Assembly: GCA_029838215.1 (NCBI GenBank)
Contig: JALGVI010000025.1
Span: 1-35,744 of the forward strand
Reading direction: 5' to 3'
DNA length: 35,744 bases
DNA from: Candidatus Helarchaeota archaeon
GTDB taxonomy: Archaea; Asgardarchaeota; Lokiarchaeia; Helarchaeales; RDOG01
Shown: piece by piece, positions 21,037-34,471 of the stretch
Layout: each line of letters opens with the position of its first letter
How positions within the stretch are numbered: the first letter of the stretch is position 1
Notes under the pieces: model-generated
What the model saw: only the letters and a program-made list of their open reading frames with translations
What the model was told of the DNA's origin: nothing
Database searches by the model: none
Translations under genes and position numbers: made by a program

Positions 21037-21465
21037 ATGTTCATGGTAAAAGTAGGTGATTATGAACTTCCTGACGACCTGTATTACACGGATAAGCATA
21101 CTTGGGCGAAAGTCGAAGGAGATAACGTCCGAGTTGGTGTAGATGCCATTGGCGTGGCACTAGCCGGCAAGATCATCTTCGTTCGCGTTAAAAAAGTAGG
21201 GAAAGAAGTGAAAGCAGGCAAGAATTTCGGGACTGGTGAAGCAGGAAAGGGGGTCATTCCTTTGGTTGCTCCAGTTACAGGAGAGATTGTCGAAACAAAT
21301 CCAAAAGCAGGCGGGCGAGAAGTAAAAGCCGTGAATGAAGATCCTTACGGAGAAGGCTGGCTTGCAGTGATCAAGCCGACAGGGGATAAGGATTCTGAAC
21401 TCGGTGCACTAAAACACGGCGACAACGTTGTAGCATGGGCAGAAGAAGAAATCAAGCAAATTTAA
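21037..21465 (+). CDS. GcvH/LbpA-like lipoyl-carrier protein 1
   Basis: YTDKHTWAKV, VRVG, lipoyl motif GEAGKG (Lys71 at 21247-21249), APVTGEIVE, DPYGEGWL. The true start may be ATG 21043. Confidence 0.92.
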   Translation: MFMVKVGDYELPDDLYYTDKHTWAKVEGDNVRVGVDAIGVALAGKIIFVRVKKVGKEVKAGKNFGTGEAGKGVIPLVAPVTGEIVETNPKAGGREVKAVNEDPYGEGWLAVIKPTGDKDSELGALKHGDNVVAWAEEEIKQI

Positions 21466-21585
21466 TTTTTTTCTCGCCCATTTATTTATTTTAGGACTAG
21501 TTTTTGAGAAGTACAACCAAAGTCCCATCATGCTTTATAAATAAAAAAACCTTGTAATCTTGAAAATCTACTGCAAGAAGGATGC

Positions 21586-22059
21586 ATGATAACCATGCCA
21601 GCGATTGATGGATATGACTTCCCCGAAGACGTGTTGATAAATGAACACAACTTATGGACGAAGCCGGCTCCTGACGGAGAGAATTATGCAATAGGAATCA
21701 CGGATTTTGCGCAACAGAATTTAGATAGCATTACCTTTGTAGAAATAGTTCTCGAAGAAGGTGAGCAGGCAAAATATAATCGACCCTTCGGTGCGCTTTT
21801 GGCTAGCGGCAAGGGATCGATCACGTTATACAGTCCATTAACGGGTGAAATAGTGGAAATAAATGAACGATTAGATGACGAACCTGCCTTGATCAAGCAG
21901 GATTGTTATGGTGAAGGTTGGATAATGAAAATAAAACCATCAAAGATCGAAGAGGAAACCGACAAGTTAATGGCGCCGGGTTCAGAACATTTTAAAACAT
22001 GGCAATTAAAAGAAATTGAACGTGTAAAAAAAATAAATGAAGAGTTAAAAAACAAGTAG
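21586..22059 (+). CDS. GcvH/LbpA-like lipoyl-carrier protein 2
   Basis: IGITDFAQ, LASGKG (Lys76 at 21811-21813), SPLTGEIVEIN, DCYGEGWIMKIK. Confidence 0.9.
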   Translation: MITMPAIDGYDFPEDVLINEHNLWTKPAPDGENYAIGITDFAQQNLDSITFVEIVLEEGEQAKYNRPFGALLASGKGSITLYSPLTGEIVEINERLDDEPALIKQDCYGEGWIMKIKPSKIEEETDKLMAPGSEHFKTWQLKEIERVKKINEELKNK

Positions 22060-22077
22060 AACTAGGAGGTTAAATGA

Positions 22078-22980
22078 ATCTCTTATGTACTTTTTCTAGG
22101 ATGCACTACGCCCGTTCGGGCTTTAAATTACGAAGTATCATTACGAAAATTGCTTGCTTTTTTTAACATTTCCTTGATCGATACAGATGAATTCACGTGT
22201 TGTGCACCTTCTTTTATTTCTACAATAAATCCAAAGACGGCTCTTCATGTTGGTGCAAGAAATCTGGCTGTAGCAGAAAAAATTAATGCCACGATCATCA
22301 CGCCTTGCTCGGGTTGTTTCAAATCGTTGAAAGAAGTCCAAGATGAGTTGAGTAAGGATCCAAGTAAAGTCAACATGATAAATGACTTTCTTTCAAAAAC
22401 AGGAAAAAGGTATGAAGGAAAAGTCAAGGTCAAGCACGTGATGGAAGTAATAATGGATGATATAGGGATCGAAACCATAAAAAAGCGCGCTAAACATTCA
22501 CTTCGAGGATTAAAAATTGCACCTTATTATGGATGTCACTTGATACGCCCATCCAACATTTCCCAGTTTGATGACCCGGAGATTCCGAGAAGTCTGGATT
22601 CCATTATCGAAAAGTTTGAAGGCACCAGTCTTGATTATGAAGGCAAGTTGGACTGCTGTGGTGGCCCATTAAAAACCATTAATGACGAAATTAGCCTTGA
22701 ATTATTAGACATTAAATTGAAAAGCTTGAAAAAAAAATCGGTTGATGCCGTGATTCTTGCATGTCCCTTTTGCTTTTTCCAATTTGAGTTTGGACAAAAA
22801 GAAATTTTAAAAGAAAGAGGCGTTAAATATGACATCCCAATTCTTACGGTCACGGAAATGTTGGGTTTGCTATTGGGACTGGAACCCAAGGAGTTGGGAT
22901 TCGGTCTCCACATTGTCAAGACTAAATCATTTTTATCAAAATTTCAAGAAATGAATGGAAAAGAGGGGGAAGGAAAATAG
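22078..22980 (+). CDS. hdrB: Heterodisulfide reductase subunit B (copy 1); 5' end extended beyond the ORF track, start codon anomalous
   Basis: The frame is open from ATC 22078 and encodes SYVLFLGCTTPVRALNYE, the first CCG-domain Cys. It then shows CCAP, PCSGC, YYGCH, CCGG and CPFC, so two CCG domains; about 300 aa. Confidence 0.92.
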   Translation: MSYVLFLGCTTPVRALNYEVSLRKLLAFFNISLIDTDEFTCCAPSFISTINPKTALHVGARNLAVAEKINATIITPCSGCFKSLKEVQDELSKDPSKVNMINDFLSKTGKRYEGKVKVKHVMEVIMDDIGIETIKKRAKHSLRGLKIAPYYGCHLIRPSNISQFDDPEIPRSLDSIIEKFEGTSLDYEGKLDCCGGPLKTINDEISLELLDIKLKSLKKKSVDAVILACPFCFFQFEFGQKEILKERGVKYDIPILTVTEMLGLLLGLEPKELGFGLHIVKTKSFLSKFQEMNGKEGEGK

Positions 22981-22981
22981 G

Positions 22982-23536
22982 ATGACGACTCCAAAAGAGG
23001 TCGTAAATTACGATGAATTAGATTCAAGTTTCATCATCGAGTTAAAAAAAATGGTTGGAGATGAAATCCTTGCTTGTTTTCAATGTGGAATGTGCACGGC
23101 AGGATGTCCTTCAGCACCATTCGGTTACAACATTCGCCAAATCTTGAAATTAGCCATTTGGGGATTTAGGAATGAATTGCTCGAAAGCGATTTCATTTGG
23201 TTCTGCACGGAATGTGGAAAATGTGCAGAACGTTGCACCCAAAACATTGAGCCATATAAAATCATTTTAGGAATACAAAGATTAGCTGCAAGACAAGGCA
23301 ATATCCCTCTTACGGTATTGCATCGCATTAAGCAGTTCATGAAGAGCGGTCGCGTCGTAGAGGTTGATGAACTCACGGAGCTGAAACGTGAGAGATATGA
23401 ATTACCAAAATGTGATAAAGAATTGCCGGAAAGTGTGATGAGAGAACTTGAAGCGATTTTGGATATGACAGAATTTCGAAAATCCTATAAAGACCGAGTA
23501 TCGAACAAAGATTCAGGAGATCGAAATCAAGAATGA
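22982..23536 (+). CDS. hdrC: Heterodisulfide reductase subunit C (copy 1)
   Basis: CFQCGMCTAGCP and IWFCTECGKCAERCTQ. The ATG is 1 nt after the hdrB stop, and there is an ATGA overlap with hdrA. Confidence 0.93.
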   Translation: MTTPKEVVNYDELDSSFIIELKKMVGDEILACFQCGMCTAGCPSAPFGYNIRQILKLAIWGFRNELLESDFIWFCTECGKCAERCTQNIEPYKIILGIQRLAARQGNIPLTVLHRIKQFMKSGRVVEVDELTELKRERYELPKCDKELPESVMRELEAILDMTEFRKSYKDRVSNKDSGDRNQE

Positions 23537-25482
23537 CGAGTTCAGATCAACCCAAAATCGGCGTTTTTATTTGTCATTGCGGAACCAACATCGCAGGCGT
23601 GATCGATGTAAAAAGAATCGTGAATGAACTACAACGGGCAGATAATATTCATGTCGTGAGACATTATGAGTTCATGTGTTCAGAGCATGGTCAAGAGCTC
23701 ATTAAAAAGGCAATTGAGAAACAGAAGATCAACCGAATCGTCGTGGCCTGTTGCAGCCCCAAATTCCACGAAAAGACATTTCAAAGATGCTTGGCTGCAG
23801 GTGGTATCAATCCTTTCTTTGTAGAAATCGCGAACATAAGAGAGCAATGTTCTTGGGTTCATAAGAGCAAACCTAATGAAGCAACTGAAAAAGCAATTAA
23901 AATAATAAAGGGAGCCGTTGGAAAAGCATTACATCTGAAACCCATTGAAGTCATTACAGTACCCATTATTCGTGAAGTAGTTGTTATTGGTGGCGGGATT
24001 GCAGGAATACAGGCGGCTCTCGATATAGCAGATACAGGAACCAAGGTCCATATTATCGAAAAATACGTGAGCCTGGGAGGCAACATGGCTCGCACGGAAA
24101 AAACATTTCCGACAAATGATTGCGCCATGTGCATTCTCTCCCCAAAGCTCAACGATGTACGAAGTCATGACAACATCACGATTCATACAATGTCTGAAGT
24201 GAAAAAAGTAGATGGCTTTCTCGGCAATTTTGTGGTCACCGTTGAAAAGAATCCGCGGTTTGTCGATGAAAAAAAATGCATTAATTGTGGAAGATGCATT
24301 GAAATCTGCCCAGTTGAAGTCCTCGATGAATGGCAATTAAACATGGGATTTCGGAAGGCAATTCACGTGCCATTTGCCCAAGCACTCCCTTCCTGTCCCG
24401 CCATCGATGAAAAAAATTGCACGAAATGCGGTAAATGTGAAGAGAAGTGCCCTACAAACGCGATAAACTTGAAGGAGACCAAACAAACCATTACATTAAG
24501 AGTTGGAGCGATCATTACAAGCATTGGTTGGGAAGAATGGGATCCGTCGCCAATAGTACAGTATAGATACGGACAAAATAAAAACGTGATAACTCAATTT
24601 CAATTCGCAAGATTATTGGATCCATTTGGTCCCACTGATGGAAAAATTCTGACTGCAGAAGGAAAATCGGTAAAAAGAATCGTCATGATTCAATGCGTTG
24701 GATCTAGAGATAAACGATATAACCAGTATTGCAGCACGGTATGTTGCATGGCAGCTTTGAAACACGCTCAATTAGCAAAGATGGAACATGATTCAGAAAT
24801 AGATGTCATAATCTGCCATCAAGAAATGAGAACACCAAAAAAACGACATGAACAATATTTTACGAATGCAAGAGAAATCGGAGTTAAATTCATCCGTGGA
24901 AGACCTTCAGAGGTTTTAGAAGATCCCGACTCGGATCAGTTGATTGTCAGGGTTGAGGATGAAGAACTACAGAAATTATTTTCAATCAAGACTGATTTGG
25001 TCGTGTTATCTACTGCTACTGTTGCGTCAAAAGATACGGAGAAACTCGCACGCATATTAGGTATCGATGTTGATGCCGAGGGGTTTGTGGCAGAGTTGCA
25101 CCCAAAATTAGCTCCTGTAGAAACAAAGGTTGCAGGAATTTTCGTTTGCGGTGCCTTACAAGGTCCAAAAGATATCCCTGATTCGGTTGCTCAAGGAGGA
25201 GCGGCTGCCGCCAAGGTAATCGCAACGTTCAGTAATCCTGTTATAAAGAAAAATCTTGAAATTCCCGAAATAAATCAAGACCTTTGTGTTCTTTGCGGTA
25301 CCTGTGTTGAATCGTGCAACTTTTCGGCATTAACAAAACACGATAAGCTAAAAAAAATCGTAGTTCACGCACTGAAATGCGTTGGATGTGGCATGTGCAT
25401 GCAGGCATGTCCTACAGGAGCATGTCAATTAAAAACATATCGGGATGATCAACTTCATGACCAAATCCAACAAATAATCTAA
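23533..25482 (+). CDS. hdrA: Heterodisulfide reductase subunit A, methanogen-type full-length (649 aa)
   Basis: GVFICHCGTNIAG, ACCSP, NIREQCSWVH, IGGGIAG, KTFPTNDCAMC, inserted 2x[4Fe-4S] domain, QCVGSRD...CSTVCCMAALK, C-terminal 2x[4Fe-4S] domain. Confidence 0.97.
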   Translation: MTSSDQPKIGVFICHCGTNIAGVIDVKRIVNELQRADNIHVVRHYEFMCSEHGQELIKKAIEKQKINRIVVACCSPKFHEKTFQRCLAAGGINPFFVEIANIREQCSWVHKSKPNEATEKAIKIIKGAVGKALHLKPIEVITVPIIREVVVIGGGIAGIQAALDIADTGTKVHIIEKYVSLGGNMARTEKTFPTNDCAMCILSPKLNDVRSHDNITIHTMSEVKKVDGFLGNFVVTVEKNPRFVDEKKCINCGRCIEICPVEVLDEWQLNMGFRKAIHVPFAQALPSCPAIDEKNCTKCGKCEEKCPTNAINLKETKQTITLRVGAIITSIGWEEWDPSPIVQYRYGQNKNVITQFQFARLLDPFGPTDGKILTAEGKSVKRIVMIQCVGSRDKRYNQYCSTVCCMAALKHAQLAKMEHDSEIDVIICHQEMRTPKKRHEQYFTNAREIGVKFIRGRPSEVLEDPDSDQLIVRVEDEELQKLFSIKTDLVVLSTATVASKDTEKLARILGIDVDAEGFVAELHPKLAPVETKVAGIFVCGALQGPKDIPDSVAQGGAAAAKVIATFSNPVIKKNLEIPEINQDLCVLCGTCVESCNFSALTKHDKLKKIVVHALKCVGCGMCMQACPTGACQLKTYRDDQLHDQIQQII

Positions 25483-25931
25483 ACTTCAGGGTTTTCTGGT
25501 ATTCGTTCTCTAATTTTCTTCTCCAATTTTCCGAGTTGGTATATTTTCTTCGTGAATTCACTTGCGACTTTGACCCACTCTCGAGCCATGCTTGCACTGA
25601 TAAAATGCATTTCAATTCGAGCGGGGCTGATGCCAATCTCTTTAAAGATATCCTGCACGAATTTTACGAGTTGTTCTGCACGATAATTACCACCAGAGTT
25701 ATTTCCCGTTTCATAATGACATTGATCTTTTAAACATCCACTAATAATTACACCATCTGCTCCCGACACGAATGCTTCTAAAATAAGGGGCAAATCCACC
25801 CGTCCAGTGCAAGGCACTCTTACTATTTTAATATTAGTAGGATATTCAAAACGGCTCATACCAGCTAAGTCTGCTGCCGCATAAGTGCATTCATTACAAA
25901 TCAATGCAAGGATGTTTATTTCATTCGACAT
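25479..25931 (-). CDS. mvhD: MvhD/FlpD [2Fe-2S] subunit
   Basis: CNECTYAAADLAG, RVPCTGRV, GADGVIISGC...CHY. ATG 25931 preferred over 25973. Confidence 0.95.
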   Translation of the reverse strand: MSNEINILALICNECTYAAADLAGMSRFEYPTNIKIVRVPCTGRVDLPLILEAFVSGADGVIISGCLKDQCHYETGNNSGGNYRAEQLVKFVQDIFKEIGISPARIEMHFISASMAREWVKVASEFTKKIYQLGKLEKKIRERIPENPEV

Positions 25932-26156
25932 GGTAATCAAAGCTGGTCTTCTCGATGATTTGGAAAAAAACATTTAAAAGCTAAGTTACACTATTCCAAA
26001 CAATCAGATTAAAATTTCCTATCTAAAAAAAATACGATGAAAATCTATTTTTCAAGGTCTTTTAGTCTGTTAGGGTGAAATCACGCCCATTACAAAATAA
26101 AAAGAATTAAAAAAAAGGAAAAAATAAGCATAAGGAAAGATTCAAGAGTTGTTTTT

Positions 26157-26721: not shown

Positions 26722-27606
26722 TTAGGCAATTTTTGCCAATAGTGGGTTCAGTTTCACCCTATGGAACTTCACACCCAATTCTTTAGGTTTTTCACCAAAT
26801 GCAAGTGCTAAATACTCGGCAAAATATAAAACAGGTATCTTGTAATCAGCACCTTCGAATTGCTTGTTGACTTTTGATTGACCCATTTCAAATTGGGAAT
26901 AACAAGCGGGACAAATGACAACGAGTGCATCGGCATTCATGCGTTTTATTTGTTTAAGTTTTGATTCAAGCATGCTCAACTGTGCACTTTCAACTATCCC
27001 AGAAATTGCAGAACCACAACACTGATATTTCTTGAGATATTCAATGCTTTTAGCACCTGTTGCGGTTATGACCTTATCAAGAGACGTGGGTCTTATGGGA
27101 TCATCAAAGTTCAAGATATAACTAGGGCGACCATAATGACAACCATAAAAAGTTGCAATCCTGAGACCCGACATGTCTTTTGAAGAAGCTTCCGTGATTT
27201 TTTCCATTCCGATGTCTTCATGCAAGAGTTCCAAGAGATGTTTGACTTCTATCGTGCCCTTATATTCCTTGCCAACTTTTGAAAGAATCTCATTGACTTC
27301 TTCAAGTTTCTGTCCATCGTGCCGTAATTCGTGCCAAGCCGTCTTGAGCGTTTCAAAGCATCCATTGCACATTGTGAGAATGTCCATCTCTTTTTCTTCA
27401 GCAATGCACAGATTGTAGGCTGCAGAAGCAAGCCACGTGCTCTCCCGAATATTATGCATTCCCACGGGATCCGGACAACATCCGAAATCAGGAACGTCCT
27501 TGTATTTTATATCTAATTTATCCATCACTTTTCGACCGGCAATTTCAACATAGGGGAAACGATTTGCAATCAAACAGCCGACAAATAAGGCATATTCATC
27601 GCTCAT
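26722..27606 (-). CDS. hdrB: Heterodisulfide reductase subunit B (copy 2)
   Basis: FVGC, GCCPDP, MCNGC, FYGCH, CCGS, CPAC; all 10 CCG-domain Cys present. Confidence 0.95.
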   Translation of the reverse strand: MSDEYALFVGCLIANRFPYVEIAGRKVMDKLDIKYKDVPDFGCCPDPVGMHNIRESTWLASAAYNLCIAEEKEMDILTMCNGCFETLKTAWHELRHDGQKLEEVNEILSKVGKEYKGTIEVKHLLELLHEDIGMEKITEASSKDMSGLRIATFYGCHYGRPSYILNFDDPIRPTSLDKVITATGAKSIEYLKKYQCCGSAISGIVESAQLSMLESKLKQIKRMNADALVVICPACYSQFEMGQSKVNKQFEGADYKIPVLYFAEYLALAFGEKPKELGVKFHRVKLNPLLAKIA

Positions 27607-28124
27607 TCATTTGCAACCTCCTGACTTGCAGGCTCTTCTTTTTTCTTAATATATTCGACAAATCCCGTTAATTCGCAGATTTTCTTGAAGTCTTCTACGT
27701 TTGGACGCGTGATGTTTTCATCCAGCCCCAGCTGCTTCCGACGCCGAGCAATGGCAGGACTGCTGGGAATATTAAGAGCATTATTGTAAAAGCCTTCACC
27801 TTCAGCACGAAATACCTCAGGCAAATGGCCACGTTCGACAGATAAATTGCGTAATTCAAACATGATTTCGGATACTAAAACAGATTGGGGACAAACTTCT
27901 AAACAGGAATGGCACGTCGTGCAGTTCCATAATACGGGGTCATCTAGTATTTTTTCCTTGAATCCTAAAAGAGCATTTTCAACAATCTTTCGTGGATTGA
28001 AAGTGCGGGTGAATCGCGCCGCAGGACAAATTCCCGTGCACGTGCCACATTGATAACAGTAATTGATAGTCTTCCCAATTTCCGACTCGCTTAATTCCTT
28101 TCGAAATACGCTAGAAATCGTCAT
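27603..28124 (-). CDS. hdrC: Heterodisulfide reductase subunit C (copy 2)
   Basis: CYQCGTCTGICP and LWNCTTCHSCLEVCPQ; ATGA overlap with hdrB copy 2. Confidence 0.95.
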   Translation of the reverse strand: MTISSVFRKELSESEIGKTINYCYQCGTCTGICPAARFTRTFNPRKIVENALLGFKEKILDDPVLWNCTTCHSCLEVCPQSVLVSEIMFELRNLSVERGHLPEVFRAEGEGFYNNALNIPSSPAIARRRKQLGLDENITRPNVEDFKKICELTGFVEYIKKKEEPASQEVANE

Positions 28125-28258: not shown

Positions 28259-31200
28259 TCATTTTTTCTTAGCCTTGCGAAGATAAGAGTTGGCTTGCTC
28301 CGAGAACCTCTTGACTTTTTCAGTATATCCTAACCGAGAAGCAACCCGAGCTGCCTTTTTGTACAACTGTCCAGCCTTGGTATAATTGTTTTTTCTTACT
28401 TCGAATCGAGCATCACCTAAAAGATCGGATAATTGAATTTCCAAGTTCTTACGTTCTAGTTTACTGAGAGGTTTTGTTTCTACAGGGACTTTTTTCTTTG
28501 GCTTCGGTTTCTTTACGGTTTTGATGCTCTTAAGTGCTTTTTTCTTTTCTTTTTCAATGCGTTCTTCAATTAACTTCTGCTCTCTTAATTCTTCTTCCTT
28601 TCGCTGTTCGGATAATTGCTTGATGATTGATTTAACCTTGCTCGCGGGAATTGCGGGTTTTTCCTTCCTGCGAAACTGATATATCATGATAGCACCCGCA
28701 ACAAGGATAATGATGACTCCAAAAATCAGAAATATTTCCCACGGGATATATGGAGGGGGAATTACGGGAGGTCGTGGCGTGACAGTGAGTTGGAAGACAA
28801 AACTCATAGTTTCATCATCAGAGTCAACGAGAACGATTCGAAGAGTCCATTGTCTTGTATTGTAAGATAAATCAGCAAGATCATCTTCGTCAAATTCATA
28901 ATAAATAATAGATGAATTTCCAGTGACCGATGTATTAACTAATTCTTCAAGACCACCATCATTGTCATCAATTTGAATGGAAAATTCTTTTAAGCCTTCA
29001 AGGTCAGAAAAGTTAAGTTGCATTGTCAATGTCATACCCTCATAAAAATCATAATTAGGAGGATAAATCTGGAGTAATGAAATAATTGGGGCATTATTTA
29101 CTACCGTGAAATTATAGGATGTCGTTGTTTCATTAATTCCACCTTCTTCATCTTCAACAGTCACGTAAAATGTCCAGTTTCCAGTTTCATACGTGGTCAG
29201 GGGTGTCCAATCCAGATACCAAGAATTAGAACTCGCGTTGAAATCCATAGAAATGTTATACCATTGGCTATTCTTGTAGCAATAAAGGCTTGCATTTACC
29301 GTGAGATTCGCTCCTCTACTAAATACGTCAATATCACTGGCATTTGCAAGAAAGGTGATATTTTGAGTCCGATACACGCTAGAAGCAGGTTGATAAATTT
29401 CAACGATGTTTGGGACGTGATTCACCACGGTAATGATGGAAGTAGTATTAAAAGTAAGGGCGTCATTCTCACGATCTCTCAAGTAGAGGAATACAAGCCA
29501 AGATCCGGCACGATCAAGAGATGTAAATACATATGAAAATGTCCAGTTAGACGTGTTATACTTTGCACCCCCAACGTCATTCACGAATTTCATTGTTCGA
29601 TTTAACCAGATATCATGTTCGATGTTTAATAATTGAATTTCGGCGTAAACCCCTGTCTTATTATAATTCAATACTTGAATCTGAATGAAATCTACGTATC
29701 CATTAGTTGTAAGGTTAGTCGTATTCAATTGGAAGAAAATCTCAATCCTGTTGTTTTGGACGTTGTTAATTATATCAGTAATTTCGCTACCCGTAAAATT
29801 AACCGTTGTCGTAACGTCAGACGTGCTGTTAAATACAGTTCCATTGATGAGATCGGGCTGATTGGTTGTCCAATTCATGATTTTCCAACCTGCGAAAGTT
29901 ACGTTTGTGGTCTGGCTAATTTTTGCTTGCACGGTCACTTCAATCCCACCAATGCCACTTCGATCGAATCCGTAATTAGTAAGGTTAATGTAATATGGAA
30001 TGGATACAAAACCGCTCGAATCATTTTCAGCATAATGATAAACAGAATCATCGGTGAAAGTGTTTTCATGACGTCCGTAGAAGATGCCAGCCGAGGTCTC
30101 AAGAATAGAGGCGTTTCCATCTATTTGTAAAGAAGTATTAACATCACTTGCAATAAAATCGTCAATATCTTTCAAGGTAGTATTTAATGAAAAAGTCTCG
30201 TTCACGCGATAAACGGTAGTGTTTTCAATCTCGAATGATTCAACTTCTGGAGCCCAATTATCCACATATACATAACCGATATATTTAGCACCGTGGAGAG
30301 CTGTTGAGATGGCAGATTCTCCATATTCATCATAGCTCTGAACCTCAACATAAATGTCATATCGCCCAACGGGGTCGTATTCGGTAAAATTGTAAGAACA
30401 GTTCCACCAACTTTGACTTTTATACCAGTAAGTATTGTAAGGTGAAGAATAGTCTTCGATGTCCATTAACATATCCATTGATTTGTTTATCCAATGGTCC
30501 ATTGTAGCTGATTTCAAACATAAAGTCGCATTAAATTCGTAGTCGTCATTATCACGATATCGATCGTCATCAAGATCAGCAATCACTGCAGTAACATTTA
30601 GTGTTTCATTTATTCGTCGAATGTGCTGATTCTCAGGATTTGTAACTTGAGTATAATTTGTTGCATTATATCGAATATGAATTGCGGTATCAGGATAACT
30701 CCCTCCAGTTTTGACTTCAGGTCTGGCGGATATTAACGTAACATTATGTGAAAATGCTTGTAGGTCATCATAATTTCCTAAACTCTCAACAAATAACCAA
30801 TCATAACGAACTGGACCGAGTTTTGCACCGTCTTCAGTATGAAAACCGGGACCTAGAGTATCAACAGGAGCTTTTATCACGATATTGTATTCTCGACCGC
30901 TAAAATTCTCGGGCAAAAAATCATCCGAAATAGAAGTGTCAGTATAATTATGAATAAAGGTCTGGAATATATATCGGGTACTCGGTTGGAAAACCGTTCC
31001 ATTAATATAAATTCTAAATTTGGTATAAGGATCATTATTCGGATCAATGTAATCATCGATATCCGTAACATTAGCCCAAACTTCAGATCCTGGAGTTGCT
31101 ATGTGATAGTTTTTTCGTCGTAGGTAAGAAAATACGTCATGAAGTAATACTTTATAGTTCCCTGGGATGTACAATTCTTCACCCGCGCTCGGGATTCTCT

Positions 31201-34200
31201 GCTCGGGATCCCCAAACAAGACGAATTGATGATAGTCCTCACTATTATCGGGAAATCCACTTTCCTCTTGGATGTCATTTCTCCAATTTTGTGAATATAC
31301 CCGGGAAGTGGAATTTAATCCTAAGGCAAGACTCATTCCGATAGTATTATTATTTTGGATGGCTTGCTGTAGAAAAATGGAAAATACTTGTTCGGAATAA
31401 CCCAGCATGTTTTCACGATAATTTGCAATGAGTGAAGATGTCCCAAGACTCATGAACGTACTGGGCAAGGTTGTTGCAGCTAAATAATCGTCATTTAACA
31501 GAATGATGCTTACATTTATCCCTTCTGGCGGTGAATCGGAAATGAACTCACTTTCATTTTTAAAGAAACCATTTGAATTATTTACAGGATTGATTAGGAG
31601 TGGATCGTCGGCAGATTTTCCGTCATCAAATCCTCTCCAATAATCAATAGCACCTTCAAGAAAATTCATGGCACCCATTTCGCCATCATTACCATTCGAT
31701 TTCACACCATATCCACAATGATACCATAGAGCAGGTCCCACGCTAAAGTTGTCTAAAATATTATTATAACCAGTCGTATTCCAAACATCATAATTTGCAG
31801 TTGATAAGATCTCCGGAATTTCAGAAGAATAATTATGTTGGCTATTGTCAAATGTCAAGTTATGCCAATAGGATACGGAAGAGAAAAGTGCTCTTTGACG
31901 GGCAAACGGACCTTTATCATAGCTTATGTTGAATTGCACGAAGTCTATACTGGCATTAATATAATCGGTCGAATTAGATGCATTAAAATAAAAATCAATT
32001 TTTATTTGATTTGTCAAATTCCCAACGTAATCAGTAATGTTATAATTTTGAAGCAAGATCACTTCATATTGTTGATCAGAAGTTGAATTAAATATGGAAT
32101 CATTAATGACATCATAGTCATTATTCGTCCAATTCCAAAGTCTAACGCCAGCAAATGTCACGTTTTCAGTTAGATTTGTTTTGGCTTTTAAATGAACCCA
32201 GATCTGGGTTATGTTGTCCTTATTGATGTTGAGATCTCGCGTTCCATTATCAAGGTCAATATAGAAAGGAACGTCTATGTACCCATTCGAGTCATTCAAC
32301 CAAGAATAATAACTCCCATCGTTTTCGTATGTATTCTCGATCGTGCCTTCAATTGGCACTCCTTGACTTGTCTGAATTCCTGCGGCGTGTTCACCAGTCA
32401 AATTCGTGGGAAAATAGATTTCTTTATAATCGGGTGATAATTCACGATAGATAAAAAGAGGAGCAAAGATACTTCGTTGAATTTCTATTGAGTTATTTAC
32501 ACCAGTTTCACCCGGAAATCGACCCACGATGAATTTATCCAGCCCTATTATTGCACGGTCAAGCGTCAGGCGGAGATCAGTCGTGGGAGATACGATGATC
32601 ACGGTTCGATTCTTTACATCAGGGTTTGCCTTATCAAGATTACTCATCCAAGATTCGAAAGTGGTCGACAGATTGACCATGTCTTCATATAAAGGAGCCG
32701 GACCCGAGAAGGGATATTGAAAGTACGTTGTATTAAGCAATTGATAATTCTGATATGCTTGTTGATACACGGTATTTGATTCATTGACACAAGGTAATAC
32801 TACACCACCATGATATGCAGCCAAGAATGCAGCAGGAGCGAAATGACCATCCTCCAAGGATGATAGAATAACATCATGTTCACTGCTGAGATTATAGATG
32901 AATTCAATTATCGATGTCATGTTTTCTAATGCTGTTATTGTAGTAAGGTTCCAAGATTCTAATGATTGAGTGAAAATAGTCTGATTGATGGTGTTTCCGG
33001 GTTCTACGAATATTGCTTCATCGGGTTGCAATTTCTCAATCACTTGTTGGACCATTTCGGAAGGAATGGAAGAATCATTCACGTATAAAATTGGAACGTG
33101 TAACAAGGATGCTATCACCGCTGCATTCGACGCAGAAAGTGCAACATCTTCTTTTATGGATGAGAGATTTGTTTTAGTTACCGTGATGTTGTAAGAAAAA
33201 CTGTTCGTTTCCAGTTCTTTTGACGTGATATATAAATTCCATTGCCCCTTTAAAGGATGTTCAACACTAATGCTTCCACCATCATTCGAACGTTCTACTA
33301 ACTGTCCATTTGGATCCAATAACCAAACCTGACAGCGGCTATCGTTAACACTAAATTGTAATCTAATATTTGAATTGTCAATGTTAAATTGATGCGAAGC
33401 ACCGCTTGAATTGAAAAAAGTCAGATTATAATATTCAATTCCAGAAAATGCCGTTTTATTATAGACCTTTAACAGCCAATCGGAGCTATTGGCAGGATGC
33501 GTCACGTTGGGAAAGAACACGTAATCATTTGATGTAAAATTATTTGTATCAAACACCCATTGCGAAGCAACGGTCTGTGAGCCATTTCCAATAAGTTCTA
33601 AGCCAAATAAATCATTTTGCGTGTTATTTATTCGCATGAACAAGAATTCCCCTTGAATTGTCATGTTACTGGAGTTATATTGCTGCAAAGTAGACCCCGA
33701 ACTGTCAAGGCTTCCAAGGATATTCTGTGTTTCAAAAGGATTAACAGTTCCCGAAAATGATAACGTTTCATTTGCGCCATCACTAAGACTTTCATTACCA
33801 AATGCGACAATTATTTTTGAATTATTGAACCAAAAATAATCTGCAATTGATGCTGACAGGTCGAAAATGTTTTCAACAGAAAAATTCAAGGGAGCAAGTT
33901 CATCACCTGCGATATAAGAATAATTAAGGGCAGGTTCAATTTCATTTCGAACATTATTTGGAACATCACCAACATACAGGATTCGTTTCAAACCACCATC
34001 TCTAATTGTGGCGGAACCCCTCCGATCTTCCATGAAATAATTGTTATAACGTCTCCAGTCATCAAGTAATAGGCGTGTACTCTCATCTAAACAATCATAT
34101 ATAATTGGAGAAATCTTAAAAATTCCAGAATCGTTAAAAATCGCATTAGGAAGAATGCTCAGGTAAGCCAATTCATCAAAAAAACTCGAATCATTTTGAT

Positions 34201-34471
34201 GCACAACCGTTAAAATTTGTAATGGAGCAAAATCAGGATTAAATGCTTGCTGGATAATGTCCTTGTCATAAAAAGATGAAGGAGGATCAGATAATCCAGT
34301 TATTGGAACGGCAGTCGGTTCATTTACAGGGGAAAAATTGCCCGACATGAATGAATTACTTGCCATCATACTAAAAATCATTTGAGAAGCAAGTGGGATT
34401 AATATTGAACTTAATAAAATTAGGGCTGTGAATGATATACCGTAAAACCTGCAATTTTTCATGATTCTCAT
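28259..34471 (-). CDS. Giant (2070 aa) single-pass surface glycoprotein: CWB2-like repeats, PPC-like domain, C25/gingipain-like fold, Ig-like domains, TM helix, cytoplasmic Lys-rich and helical domain
   Basis: N-terminal hydrophobic signal, very dense NxS/T sequons, AVIASLLHVPILYV (CWB2-like), WLLDPNGQLV...PLKGQWNLYI (PPC-like), VLFGDP, Pro-rich linker, TM IFLIFGVIIILVAGAIMIY, RRKEK. Confidence 0.85.
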   Translation of the reverse strand: MRIMKNCRFYGISFTALILLSSILIPLASQMIFSMMASNSFMSGNFSPVNEPTAVPITGLSDPPSSFYDKDIIQQAFNPDFAPLQILTVVHQNDSSFFDELAYLSILPNAIFNDSGIFKISPIIYDCLDESTRLLLDDWRRYNNYFMEDRRGSATIRDGGLKRILYVGDVPNNVRNEIEPALNYSYIAGDELAPLNFSVENIFDLSASIADYFWFNNSKIIVAFGNESLSDGANETLSFSGTVNPFETQNILGSLDSSGSTLQQYNSSNMTIQGEFLFMRINNTQNDLFGLELIGNGSQTVASQWVFDTNNFTSNDYVFFPNVTHPANSSDWLLKVYNKTAFSGIEYYNLTFFNSSGASHQFNIDNSNIRLQFSVNDSRCQVWLLDPNGQLVERSNDGGSISVEHPLKGQWNLYITSKELETNSFSYNITVTKTNLSSIKEDVALSASNAAVIASLLHVPILYVNDSSIPSEMVQQVIEKLQPDEAIFVEPGNTINQTIFTQSLESWNLTTITALENMTSIIEFIYNLSSEHDVILSSLEDGHFAPAAFLAAYHGGVVLPCVNESNTVYQQAYQNYQLLNTTYFQYPFSGPAPLYEDMVNLSTTFESWMSNLDKANPDVKNRTVIIVSPTTDLRLTLDRAIIGLDKFIVGRFPGETGVNNSIEIQRSIFAPLFIYRELSPDYKEIYFPTNLTGEHAAGIQTSQGVPIEGTIENTYENDGSYYSWLNDSNGYIDVPFYIDLDNGTRDLNINKDNITQIWVHLKAKTNLTENVTFAGVRLWNWTNNDYDVINDSIFNSTSDQQYEVILLQNYNITDYVGNLTNQIKIDFYFNASNSTDYINASIDFVQFNISYDKGPFARQRALFSSVSYWHNLTFDNSQHNYSSEIPEILSTANYDVWNTTGYNNILDNFSVGPALWYHCGYGVKSNGNDGEMGAMNFLEGAIDYWRGFDDGKSADDPLLINPVNNSNGFFKNESEFISDSPPEGINVSIILLNDDYLAATTLPSTFMSLGTSSLIANYRENMLGYSEQVFSIFLQQAIQNNNTIGMSLALGLNSTSRVYSQNWRNDIQEESGFPDNSEDYHQFVLFGDPEQRIPSAGEELYIPGNYKVLLHDVFSYLRRKNYHIATPGSEVWANVTDIDDYIDPNNDPYTKFRIYINGTVFQPSTRYIFQTFIHNYTDTSISDDFLPENFSGREYNIVIKAPVDTLGPGFHTEDGAKLGPVRYDWLFVESLGNYDDLQAFSHNVTLISARPEVKTGGSYPDTAIHIRYNATNYTQVTNPENQHIRRINETLNVTAVIADLDDDRYRDNDDYEFNATLCLKSATMDHWINKSMDMLMDIEDYSSPYNTYWYKSQSWWNCSYNFTEYDPVGRYDIYVEVQSYDEYGESAISTALHGAKYIGYVYVDNWAPEVESFEIENTTVYRVNETFSLNTTLKDIDDFIASDVNTSLQIDGNASILETSAGIFYGRHENTFTDDSVYHYAENDSSGFVSIPYYINLTNYGFDRSGIGGIEVTVQAKISQTTNVTFAGWKIMNWTTNQPDLINGTVFNSTSDVTTTVNFTGSEITDIINNVQNNRIEIFFQLNTTNLTTNGYVDFIQIQVLNYNKTGVYAEIQLLNIEHDIWLNRTMKFVNDVGGAKYNTSNWTFSYVFTSLDRAGSWLVFLYLRDRENDALTFNTTSIITVVNHVPNIVEIYQPASSVYRTQNITFLANASDIDVFSRGANLTVNASLYCYKNSQWYNISMDFNASSNSWYLDWTPLTTYETGNWTFYVTVEDEEGGINETTTSYNFTVVNNAPIISLLQIYPPNYDFYEGMTLTMQLNFSDLEGLKEFSIQIDDNDGGLEELVNTSVTGNSSIIYYEFDEDDLADLSYNTRQWTLRIVLVDSDDETMSFVFQLTVTPRPPVIPPPYIPWEIFLIFGVIIILVAGAIMIYQFRRKEKPAIPASKVKSIIKQLSEQRKEEELREQKLIEERIEKEKKKALKSIKTVKKPKPKKKVPVETKPLSKLERKNLEIQLSDLLGDARFEVRKNNYTKAGQLYKKAARVASRLGYTEKVKRFSEQANSYLRKAKKK
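29660..30075 (-). repeat. Internal protein-level repeat, copy 2 (about 140-aa beta domain)
   Basis: ENTFTDDSVY...NDSSGFVSIPYYINL...NVTFAGWKIMNWT...FNSTSD...YVDFIQ aligns by eye with copy 1. Confidence 0.75.
31920..32340 (-). repeat. Internal protein-level repeat, copy 1 (about 140-aa beta domain)
   Basis: ENTYENDGSY...NDSNGYIDVPFYIDL...NVTFAGVRLWNWT...FNSTSD...SIDFVQ. Confidence 0.75.

Follow-up and report, generated by a model that had tools for sequence, protein, structure and literature searches.

GcvH-like lipoyl carriers, often of two types, are encoded beside hdr genes in the sHdr-LbpA systems of sulfur oxidizers (PMC6067878, PMC10332631). The Ehe cluster of Culexarchaeia (GcvH, HdrBC and HdrA2B2C2) likewise holds a co-located GcvH gene, and its authors proposed, from gene order only, a lipoyl disulfide as the partner of HdrB (10.1101/2022.04.06.487207). 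Furthermore, many anaerobes have HdrB or HdrD-like enzymes with an unknown disulfide substrate (PMC9430772; 10.1101/2022.04.06.487207). Here, a related arrangement was analyzed in a stretch of 35,744 nucleotides (nt), hereafter the window, from a Candidatus Helarchaeota archaeon of the Helarchaeales (contig JALGVI010000025.1, assembly GCA_029838215.1; genome 94% complete). Two genes for lipoyl carriers, H1 and H2, precede hdrB1, hdrC1 and hdrA there. We put at about 0.58 the probability that H2 is a dedicated lipoyl carrier whose lipoyl disulfide is the substrate of the HdrB1C1A(-MvhD) enzyme encoded behind it. The host genome is labeled G000 and other genomes G001 and so on; L-numbers denote the compared loci.

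Locus layout and comparison with described systems

Open reading frame (ORF) and family searches confirmed the order H1-H2-hdrB1-hdrC1-hdrA on the plus strand, as read in the initial annotation. H2, an acidic carrier and the likely partner of HdrB1C1, is encoded at 21595..22059 (ORF from 21586), and its lipoyl lysine codon (21811..21813) is invariant among 15 relatives. H1, a GcvH/LbpA-like carrier at 21043..21465 (ORF from 21037), has a basic patch before the lipoyl hairpin and its lysine codon at 21247..21249. In both proteins, the lysine stands in the Gly-Lys-Gly context reported earlier. A terminator-like run of seven T follows the H1 stop and a TATA-like box, TTTATAAA, at 21534 precedes H2 (both within 21466..21541, plus strand). 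Because of these two putative signals, H1 is probably a separate transcription unit, and its co-transcription with H2 is improbable.

The gene hdrB1 (22078..22980) begins after a gap of 18 nt behind H2. The Shine-Dalgarno (SD) motif GGAGGT in this gap (22065..22070) was found as annotated, but the ATG after it (22074) is out of frame, and the probable start is an in-frame ATC 8 nt from the end of the GGAGG core. The coupling of the three hdr genes also held: the hdrB1 stop and the hdrC1 ATG are separated by 1 nt (22980/22982), and hdrC1 (22982..23536; ORF open from 22955) overlaps hdrA (23533..25482) in ATGA. HdrA, with 649 amino acids (aa), aligns end to end with methanogen HdrA and is thus full-length as first noted, but mvhD, which had been grouped with it, lies on the minus strand (25479..25973), tail-to-tail with hdrA. 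This mvhD probably belongs to the H2-Hdr unit because locus L040 has the operon H2-B1-C1-polyferredoxin-A-mvhD, whose mvhD is 67% identical to that of the window. Family searches of the window found no genes for the P, T and L proteins of the glycine cleavage system (GCS), a 2-oxoacid dehydrogenase or mcr, in agreement with the initial annotation, and no dsrE/tusA sulfur transferase genes; mvhAG are missing from the locus.

In sHdr clusters, a short HdrA is combined with DsrE/TusA. The present locus resembles them in its carrier genes beside hdr genes, in LipS1/S2 and ligases (dedicated ones in sHdr), in the Gly before the lipoyl Lys, and in an H1 that is sister to LbpA-type proteins. However, the N- and C-terminal Cys pair of LbpA was not found, as H1 has no Cys and H2 a single internal one; moreover, the locus has a full-length HdrA, MvhD, the order B-C-A and no sulfur transferases, and its host is an anaerobic Asgard archaeon with an alkyl-coenzyme M (CoM) reductase (ACR). 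The H2-Hdr unit is like sHdr-LbpA in its manner of working but, on the Cys pair, HdrA length and sulfur transferases, falls outside that system, and it is probably not a GCS. The Culexarchaeia cluster is set apart by description rather than by sequence: it is associated with a membrane hydrogenase, SdhA and CdhA, and its host lacks full synthesis of CoM and coenzyme B (CoB).

Like the methanogen HdrABC-MvhD complex (PDB 5ODC), the locus encodes full-length A, B, C and D subunits. In the frame that starts at the ATC, HdrB1 retains all ligands of the two non-cubane [4Fe-4S] sites (two CCG sets). The CoB anchors of methanogen HdrB are Arg14, Arg201 and Arg240 (PMC13261682). HdrB1 keeps Arg14 and also Gly198 of the CoM site, whereas Arg201 is replaced by Lys and Arg240 by Phe, and a two-residue loop is deleted; Arg14 is lost in three of the five HdrB1 orthologs. 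Glu356 and Lys409 together are a proposed marker of bifurcating HdrA (PMC12054007, PMC9430772). Our HdrA combines a conserved Lys409 with Ala in place of Glu356, like its orthologs in L104 and L040. Because Glu356 is missing, HdrA may not bifurcate, and it is more likely non-bifurcating unless paired with another HdrA. The H gene in front and the lack of mvhAG are further differences from the methanogen system.

With the GCS H protein, H1 and H2 share the fold family (GCV_H, PF01597) and the lipoyl Lys. Unlike it, they have Gly-Lys-Gly instead of Val-Lys-Ala, score below the NCBIfam gcvH cut-offs and fall outside the clade of T/P-linked H proteins. In addition, P was found in none of seven Helarchaeales genomes and T was not found in the 94% complete host genome (family searches and tblastn for both). 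PDB sequence searches gave no solved H-Hdr template, H2 matching GCS H proteins only and HdrB1 methanogen HdrB only. The earlier statement that no system of this architecture had been characterized stood as far as experiments in the literature searched are concerned, but the GcvH-HdrB idea had already been put forward for Culexarchaeia. New here are a Helarchaeales case with ACR and the fact that the arrangement recurs in both Asgards and bacteria, as well as the Gly-Lys marker, the modeled docking site and the non-AUG start.

Evidence for lipoyl-H2 as a probable partner of HdrB1

Lipoyl-H2 is proposed as the partner of HdrB1 because their adjacency is conserved and recurrent, trees and motif separate H2 from GCS H proteins, no other lipoyl clients were found, and a complex model passes. 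Gene order was surveyed in Asgard genomes and in one metagenome sample, for which the counts are lower bounds; a scan of GTDB by HdrB1 alignment returned only G001 (Ca. Helarchaeota LW55_61), a genome of the same family. In all nine H2 loci with context, hdrB borders H2, four times co-directionally as H2-hdrB1 and five times tail-to-tail with hdrB2. A gene placed at random would fall within 1.5 kb of one of the genome's nine hdrB in about 1% of cases, a per-locus figure for loci that, where related, are not independent. Orthologs of H2 and HdrB1 occur together in two of the seven Helarchaeales genomes, and the other five have neither. The gcvH-hdrB synteny expected at the outset was thus seen for H2, but H1 is only loosely linked: it occurs across the Helarchaeales, often far from hdr, most family members show it divergent from H2, and the closest relative lacks it in the position upstream of H2.

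H-hdr operons also recur elsewhere. For instance, the order glcD-CCG-hdrA/mvhD-H-hdrC-hdrB was found in four genomes of another Asgard family, one of them shown with a separate T-H-P (GCS) cluster. Baldrarchaeia have H-lpl-hdrC-hdrB or hdrCBA facing H, and a Desulfarculaceae-type contig has hdrA-C-B-H-glcDF; a record of Desulfoferula mesophila holds a relative with 90% identity to the H protein of this bacterial operon. No McrA match was found in five tested Asgard genomes with H-hdr operons, using a query that finds McrA in all seven Helarchaeales. In a quick HdrB tree, bacterial H-linked HdrB and the H/lpl/dsrE-linked HdrB of G001 were sister to HdrB1 (SH-aLRT 93). Moreover, glcD-CCG-H-CCG-lpl-lipS was seen on many metagenome contigs; L124, L130, L168 and at least about 50 more of L113-L192 are bacterial glcD-CCG-H-CCG-lpl-(lipT-lipS) clusters, in which a 2-hydroxyacid dehydrogenase is probably coupled to a lipoyl carrier.

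The residue before the lipoyl Lys is Gly in 24 of 24 Hdr-linked and 56 of 56 CCG-linked H proteins, compared with none of 45 GCS-linked ones, which suggests this Gly as a marker separating Hdr/CCG carriers from true GcvH. Gly is also found in 21 of 21 LbpA-type proteins, partly by selection: because plasmid searches yielded no sHdr reference cluster, the LbpA set of the trees comprised one two-Cys protein of Acidithiobacillus and 20 database proteins picked by two terminal Cys and the Gly-Lys motif. Trees were built without long-branch rows and with GCS- and CCG-linked rows subsampled, from samples drawn by H1/H2 or Pfam queries. All T/P-linked H proteins and the third H of the genome (H3) formed one clade in the 97-row tree (100/98), with H1 and H2 outside. 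In the 80-row tree, H2 joined other Asgard hdr-linked H proteins (98/92), away from LbpA, and H1, whose clade is Helarchaeales-wide and whose closest named relatives are Ca. Helarchaeota, was sister to the two-Cys LbpA-type proteins (100/92).

A basic ligase-facing surface is a criterion for LbpA (10.64898/2026.10.01.755906). The charge of a 12-residue sequence patch was +4.9 in the H1 clade, +2.1 in LbpA-type, -3.6 in the H2 clade and -2.5 in GCS proteins. The basic patch of H1 and the acidic one of H2 suggest that the two carriers are served by different ligases.

The predicted complex of HdrB1, HdrC1 and apo H2 scored 0.68 against 0.29 for the best control. It passes a mark that 58 of the 80 solved pairs and 2 of the 110 mismatched ones attain and that is roughly applicable here (own alignments, three chains). 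The runs agreed in at least 84% of contacts, with partner pLDDT of at least 87. The modeled interface comprises the H2 hairpin 71-73 (Lys73), HdrB1 199-203 and 238-245, and HdrC1 130-139; residues 199 and 238 of HdrB1 are the equivalents of the CoB anchors Arg201 and Arg240 (PMC13261682). The model places the lipoyl hairpin of H2 over the mouth of the CoB channel.

On these grounds, the following mechanism may be proposed. LipS1/S2 and one of four ligases would lipoylate the Lys of H2, which would dock at the HdrB/HdrC crevice as modeled. The lipoyl-lysine arm, which chemically resembles the mercaptoheptanoyl arm of CoB, would enter the CoB channel, where the two non-cubane clusters would open or close the lipoyl disulfide. 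The potential of lipoamide is -0.29 V (PMC6067878), and the conserved dihydrolipoamide dehydrogenase (LpdA) may exchange electrons of lipoyl-H2 with NAD+/NADH. The module would thus be an oxidoreductase leading from a ferredoxin/MvhD side over lipoyl-H to NAD(H), with an HdrA that would not bifurcate by itself, and it would work in parallel to the CoM-S-S-CoB enzyme of the alkane pathway rather than replace it. H1 would be a second, related carrier that resembles LbpA. Gene order, trees, motifs and the docking model suggest this scheme, in which turnover is inferred.

Several observations weigh against it. H2 is not co-transcribed with any hdrB in five of the nine loci, hdrB1 has moved away from H2 in G001, and the co-occurrence of H2 and HdrB1 is limited to one family, so that its cases are not independent. 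The approximately unbiased (AU) test on the short alignment did not reject H2 joined to the GCS group (p 0.26), which tempers the tree separation. The complex model was built without the lipoyl group, its controls exclude the paralogs H1, H3 and HdrB2, and close cousins can pass such a test. The absences should be read with caution, given a genome completeness of 94% and a family search in which McrA was missed. With CoM/CoB in use in the host, HdrB1 could simply be an ordinary paralog. Furthermore, methanogen Hdr accepts a narrow range of substrates (PMC13261682), and the Hdr-MetVF of Sporomusa was not stimulated by free lipoate (PMC9430772). The CoB anchors are missing in most HdrB paralogs of this genome, position 240 is Val in one solved methanogen HdrB, and the H-linked HdrB of Baldrarchaeia keep all three anchors; anchor loss was therefore rejected as a diagnostic.

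Host metabolism and alternative explanations

The initial annotation had taken the host for a non-methanogenic archaeon, with an implied lack of CoM/CoB, in which lipoyl-H would replace CoM-S-S-CoB and explain what Hdr does. This framing proved wrong, although the proposal of a lipoyl partner gained support for H2. An operon of mcrB-G-A, a 181-aa ORF of unknown function and component A2 lies at G000:C27:57552-63670 (L109), as identified by tblastn and NCBIfam; a Pfam MCR_alpha search of the host genome had missed McrA, a false negative. The host also encodes MMP16, which has been described as a CoM synthase (PMC12068725). Searches of its genome for ComA, cysteate synthase and ComD gave no match. 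HdrABC has been assigned to CoM/CoB recycling in Helarchaeota (PMC6478937). At least 13 HdrA and nine HdrB genes were counted in the host genome, and the HdrB at C92:20424, the only one with methanogen-type loops, probably does the usual CoM/CoB job. It belongs to a large hdr/mvh cluster (G000:C92:12688-26953) with lpdA 1.6 kb upstream.

The genome search for lipoate genes fared better. Two lipS1/S2-lpl clusters and four ligases were found in the host genome, with a LipS1 match just below cut-off, and LpdA is above cut-off in six of the seven genomes, the host included. E1 and a lipoyl domain or lipoyl-E2 were not found in the 94% complete G000. The six other Helarchaeales genomes do have E1, for which H3 could be the relay.

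The first alternative sees in HdrB1C1A a further CoM-S-S-CoB enzyme of an alkane oxidizer and in the H genes historical neighbors that act as a lipoyl relay or store. The mcrBGA genes, A2 and MMP16, the abundance of Hdr genes, Arg14 and the complete cluster ligands of HdrB1, and the linkage that is broken or convergent in five of nine loci all agree with it, and a relay could serve E1 in the six other genomes. We nevertheless regard it as unlikely: H-hdr operons recur in lineages without McrA matches, G000 has no detected E1 or lipoyl-E2 to receive a relay, the HdrB on C92 is a better CoM/CoB candidate, and the HdrB1C1-H2 model passes.

Second, a sulfur system like sHdr-LbpA may be considered, in which the lipoyl arm carries sulfane sulfur and Hdr oxidizes or reduces a protein-bound persulfide. 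The shared Gly-Lys motif, the LipS1/S2 route, and the position (100/92) of H1 and its LbpA-like basic patch in the sequence speak for it. Moreover, in the Helarchaeon G001, another H occurs with lpl, dsrE, dsrE2 and hdrC-B-A (L046, G001:C5:1372500-1382000) in a layout that resembles sHdr-LbpA. Set against this are the missing LbpA cysteines in H1 and H2, the window without dsrE/tusA, the full-length HdrA in a gene order other than that of sHdr, and the grouping of H2 away from LbpA; a sulfur role is accordingly given a low probability.

Third, lipoyl-H2 could stand in for CoB as a protein-bound analogue that forms a mixed disulfide with CoM, or it could accept the alkyl group from alkyl-CoM, which would tie the module to the step from alkyl-CoM to acyl-CoA. 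This step is unresolved (PMC6478937), the host carries ACR, H2 was modeled on the CoB side with Gly198 of the CoM site kept, and a stand-alone E2-like acyltransferase domain is encoded on C165 (G000:C165:51045-51905), where a lipoyl domain is absent; no E1 was found in the genome. However, H2 and HdrB1 are absent from five of seven ACR-bearing Helarchaeales, the closest H-hdr operons come from genomes that gave no McrA match, and no linkage to the mcr operon was seen, which makes this the least probable of the three functional alternatives. No paper combining lipoyl with ACR was found by literature search. A link of acyl-CoA catabolism to ferredoxin had also been suggested. It was not borne out: the upstream acyl-CoA genes form a loose neighborhood, in which the neighbors common to relatives include tRNA-modification and molybdopterin genes, and Ala at the Glu356 position weakens the bifurcation part.

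Finally, a decaying cluster, with hdrB1 frameshifted at its start and the unit non-functional, is highly improbable, since the out-of-frame ATG that suggests it is answered by intact frames and ligands and by a start region conserved in the orthologs, and pseudogene status was rejected. In the HdrB frame, TGA (22075-77) precedes the ATC (22078-22080), and a second record of the same sequence has identical bases. The nearest relative has no ATG there; it has SD and ATC at the same spacing and an intact frame. In each of the five HdrB1 orthologs, an ATC or ATA follows 5-9 nt behind a strong SD, at a similar position (the window; L104:1826; L270 near 1750; L040 near 5500; L108 near 8390), and three of them lack an in-frame ATG, GTG or TTG near the start. 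Similar ATC/ATT-like starts were found in 5 of 102 SD-led genes of the host genome. Because the orthologs keep this spacing and frame, a conserved non-AUG start of hdrB1 is most likely. Gene callers shorten HdrB1 (to 268 and 201 aa), and one cluster ligand is lost.

Other features and significance

A second pair, hdrC2-hdrB2, lies on the minus strand (26722..28124), and its orthologs are also present in Helarchaeales without H2; in G005, lpdA follows hdrC2-B2 (L203). A family-wide neighbor of hdrC2 is a 2070-aa protein (28259-34471) with no confident Pfam family, which is probably surface-anchored. Elsewhere in the host genome, HdrA paralogs at G000:C144:10334-12253 and C12:26264-28180 contain two in-frame TGA, probably read as selenocysteine. 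In several relatives (L039, L105-L107, L044), H1 is tail-to-tail with cdhC (acetyl-CoA synthase beta), an arrangement that recalls acsB-gcvH of clostridial acetogens.

H domains were also found in fusions. The 1391-aa P0134 (L272:3234-7409), with three H domains and GlcD, Fe-S and CCG domains, sits behind a two-component system; it has a Rosetta-stone look but was not counted, since all three H domains are without the lipoyl Lys. P0289 joins an HdrC/D-like region to an H domain with Lys kept. In Asgard genomes, a Lys-less GcvH-like domain is fused to a Ras/Roc small GTPase (L063:7329-8321, G001:C5), and a DGC domain is fused to an H domain (L051:7133-8059, G003:C185), with similar H fusions of 295-309 aa in several Lokiarchaeia.

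As a wider generalization, for which we claim somewhat less than even odds, Gly-Lys H proteins may be widespread protein-bound disulfide substrates, mimicking CoB, for HdrB and for HdrD/GlcF-type CCG enzymes in anaerobic archaea and Desulfobacterota. Together with LpdA, they would couple these enzymes to NAD(H) without CoM/CoB; sHdr-LbpA would be one branch and the H2-HdrB1C1A of Helarchaeales another.

Databases file Gly-Lys carriers under the name GcvH. The locus offers a concrete candidate substrate, a predicted docking site and, in the Gly before the Lys, a sequence marker against true GcvH, and Desulfoferula mesophila may offer a cultured test system. If H2 does serve HdrB1 as proposed, this would explain why lipoate synthesis and LpdA are retained in Helarchaeales without a glycine cleavage system, and it would add an NAD(H)-linked branch to the electron flow of alkane-activating Asgards.

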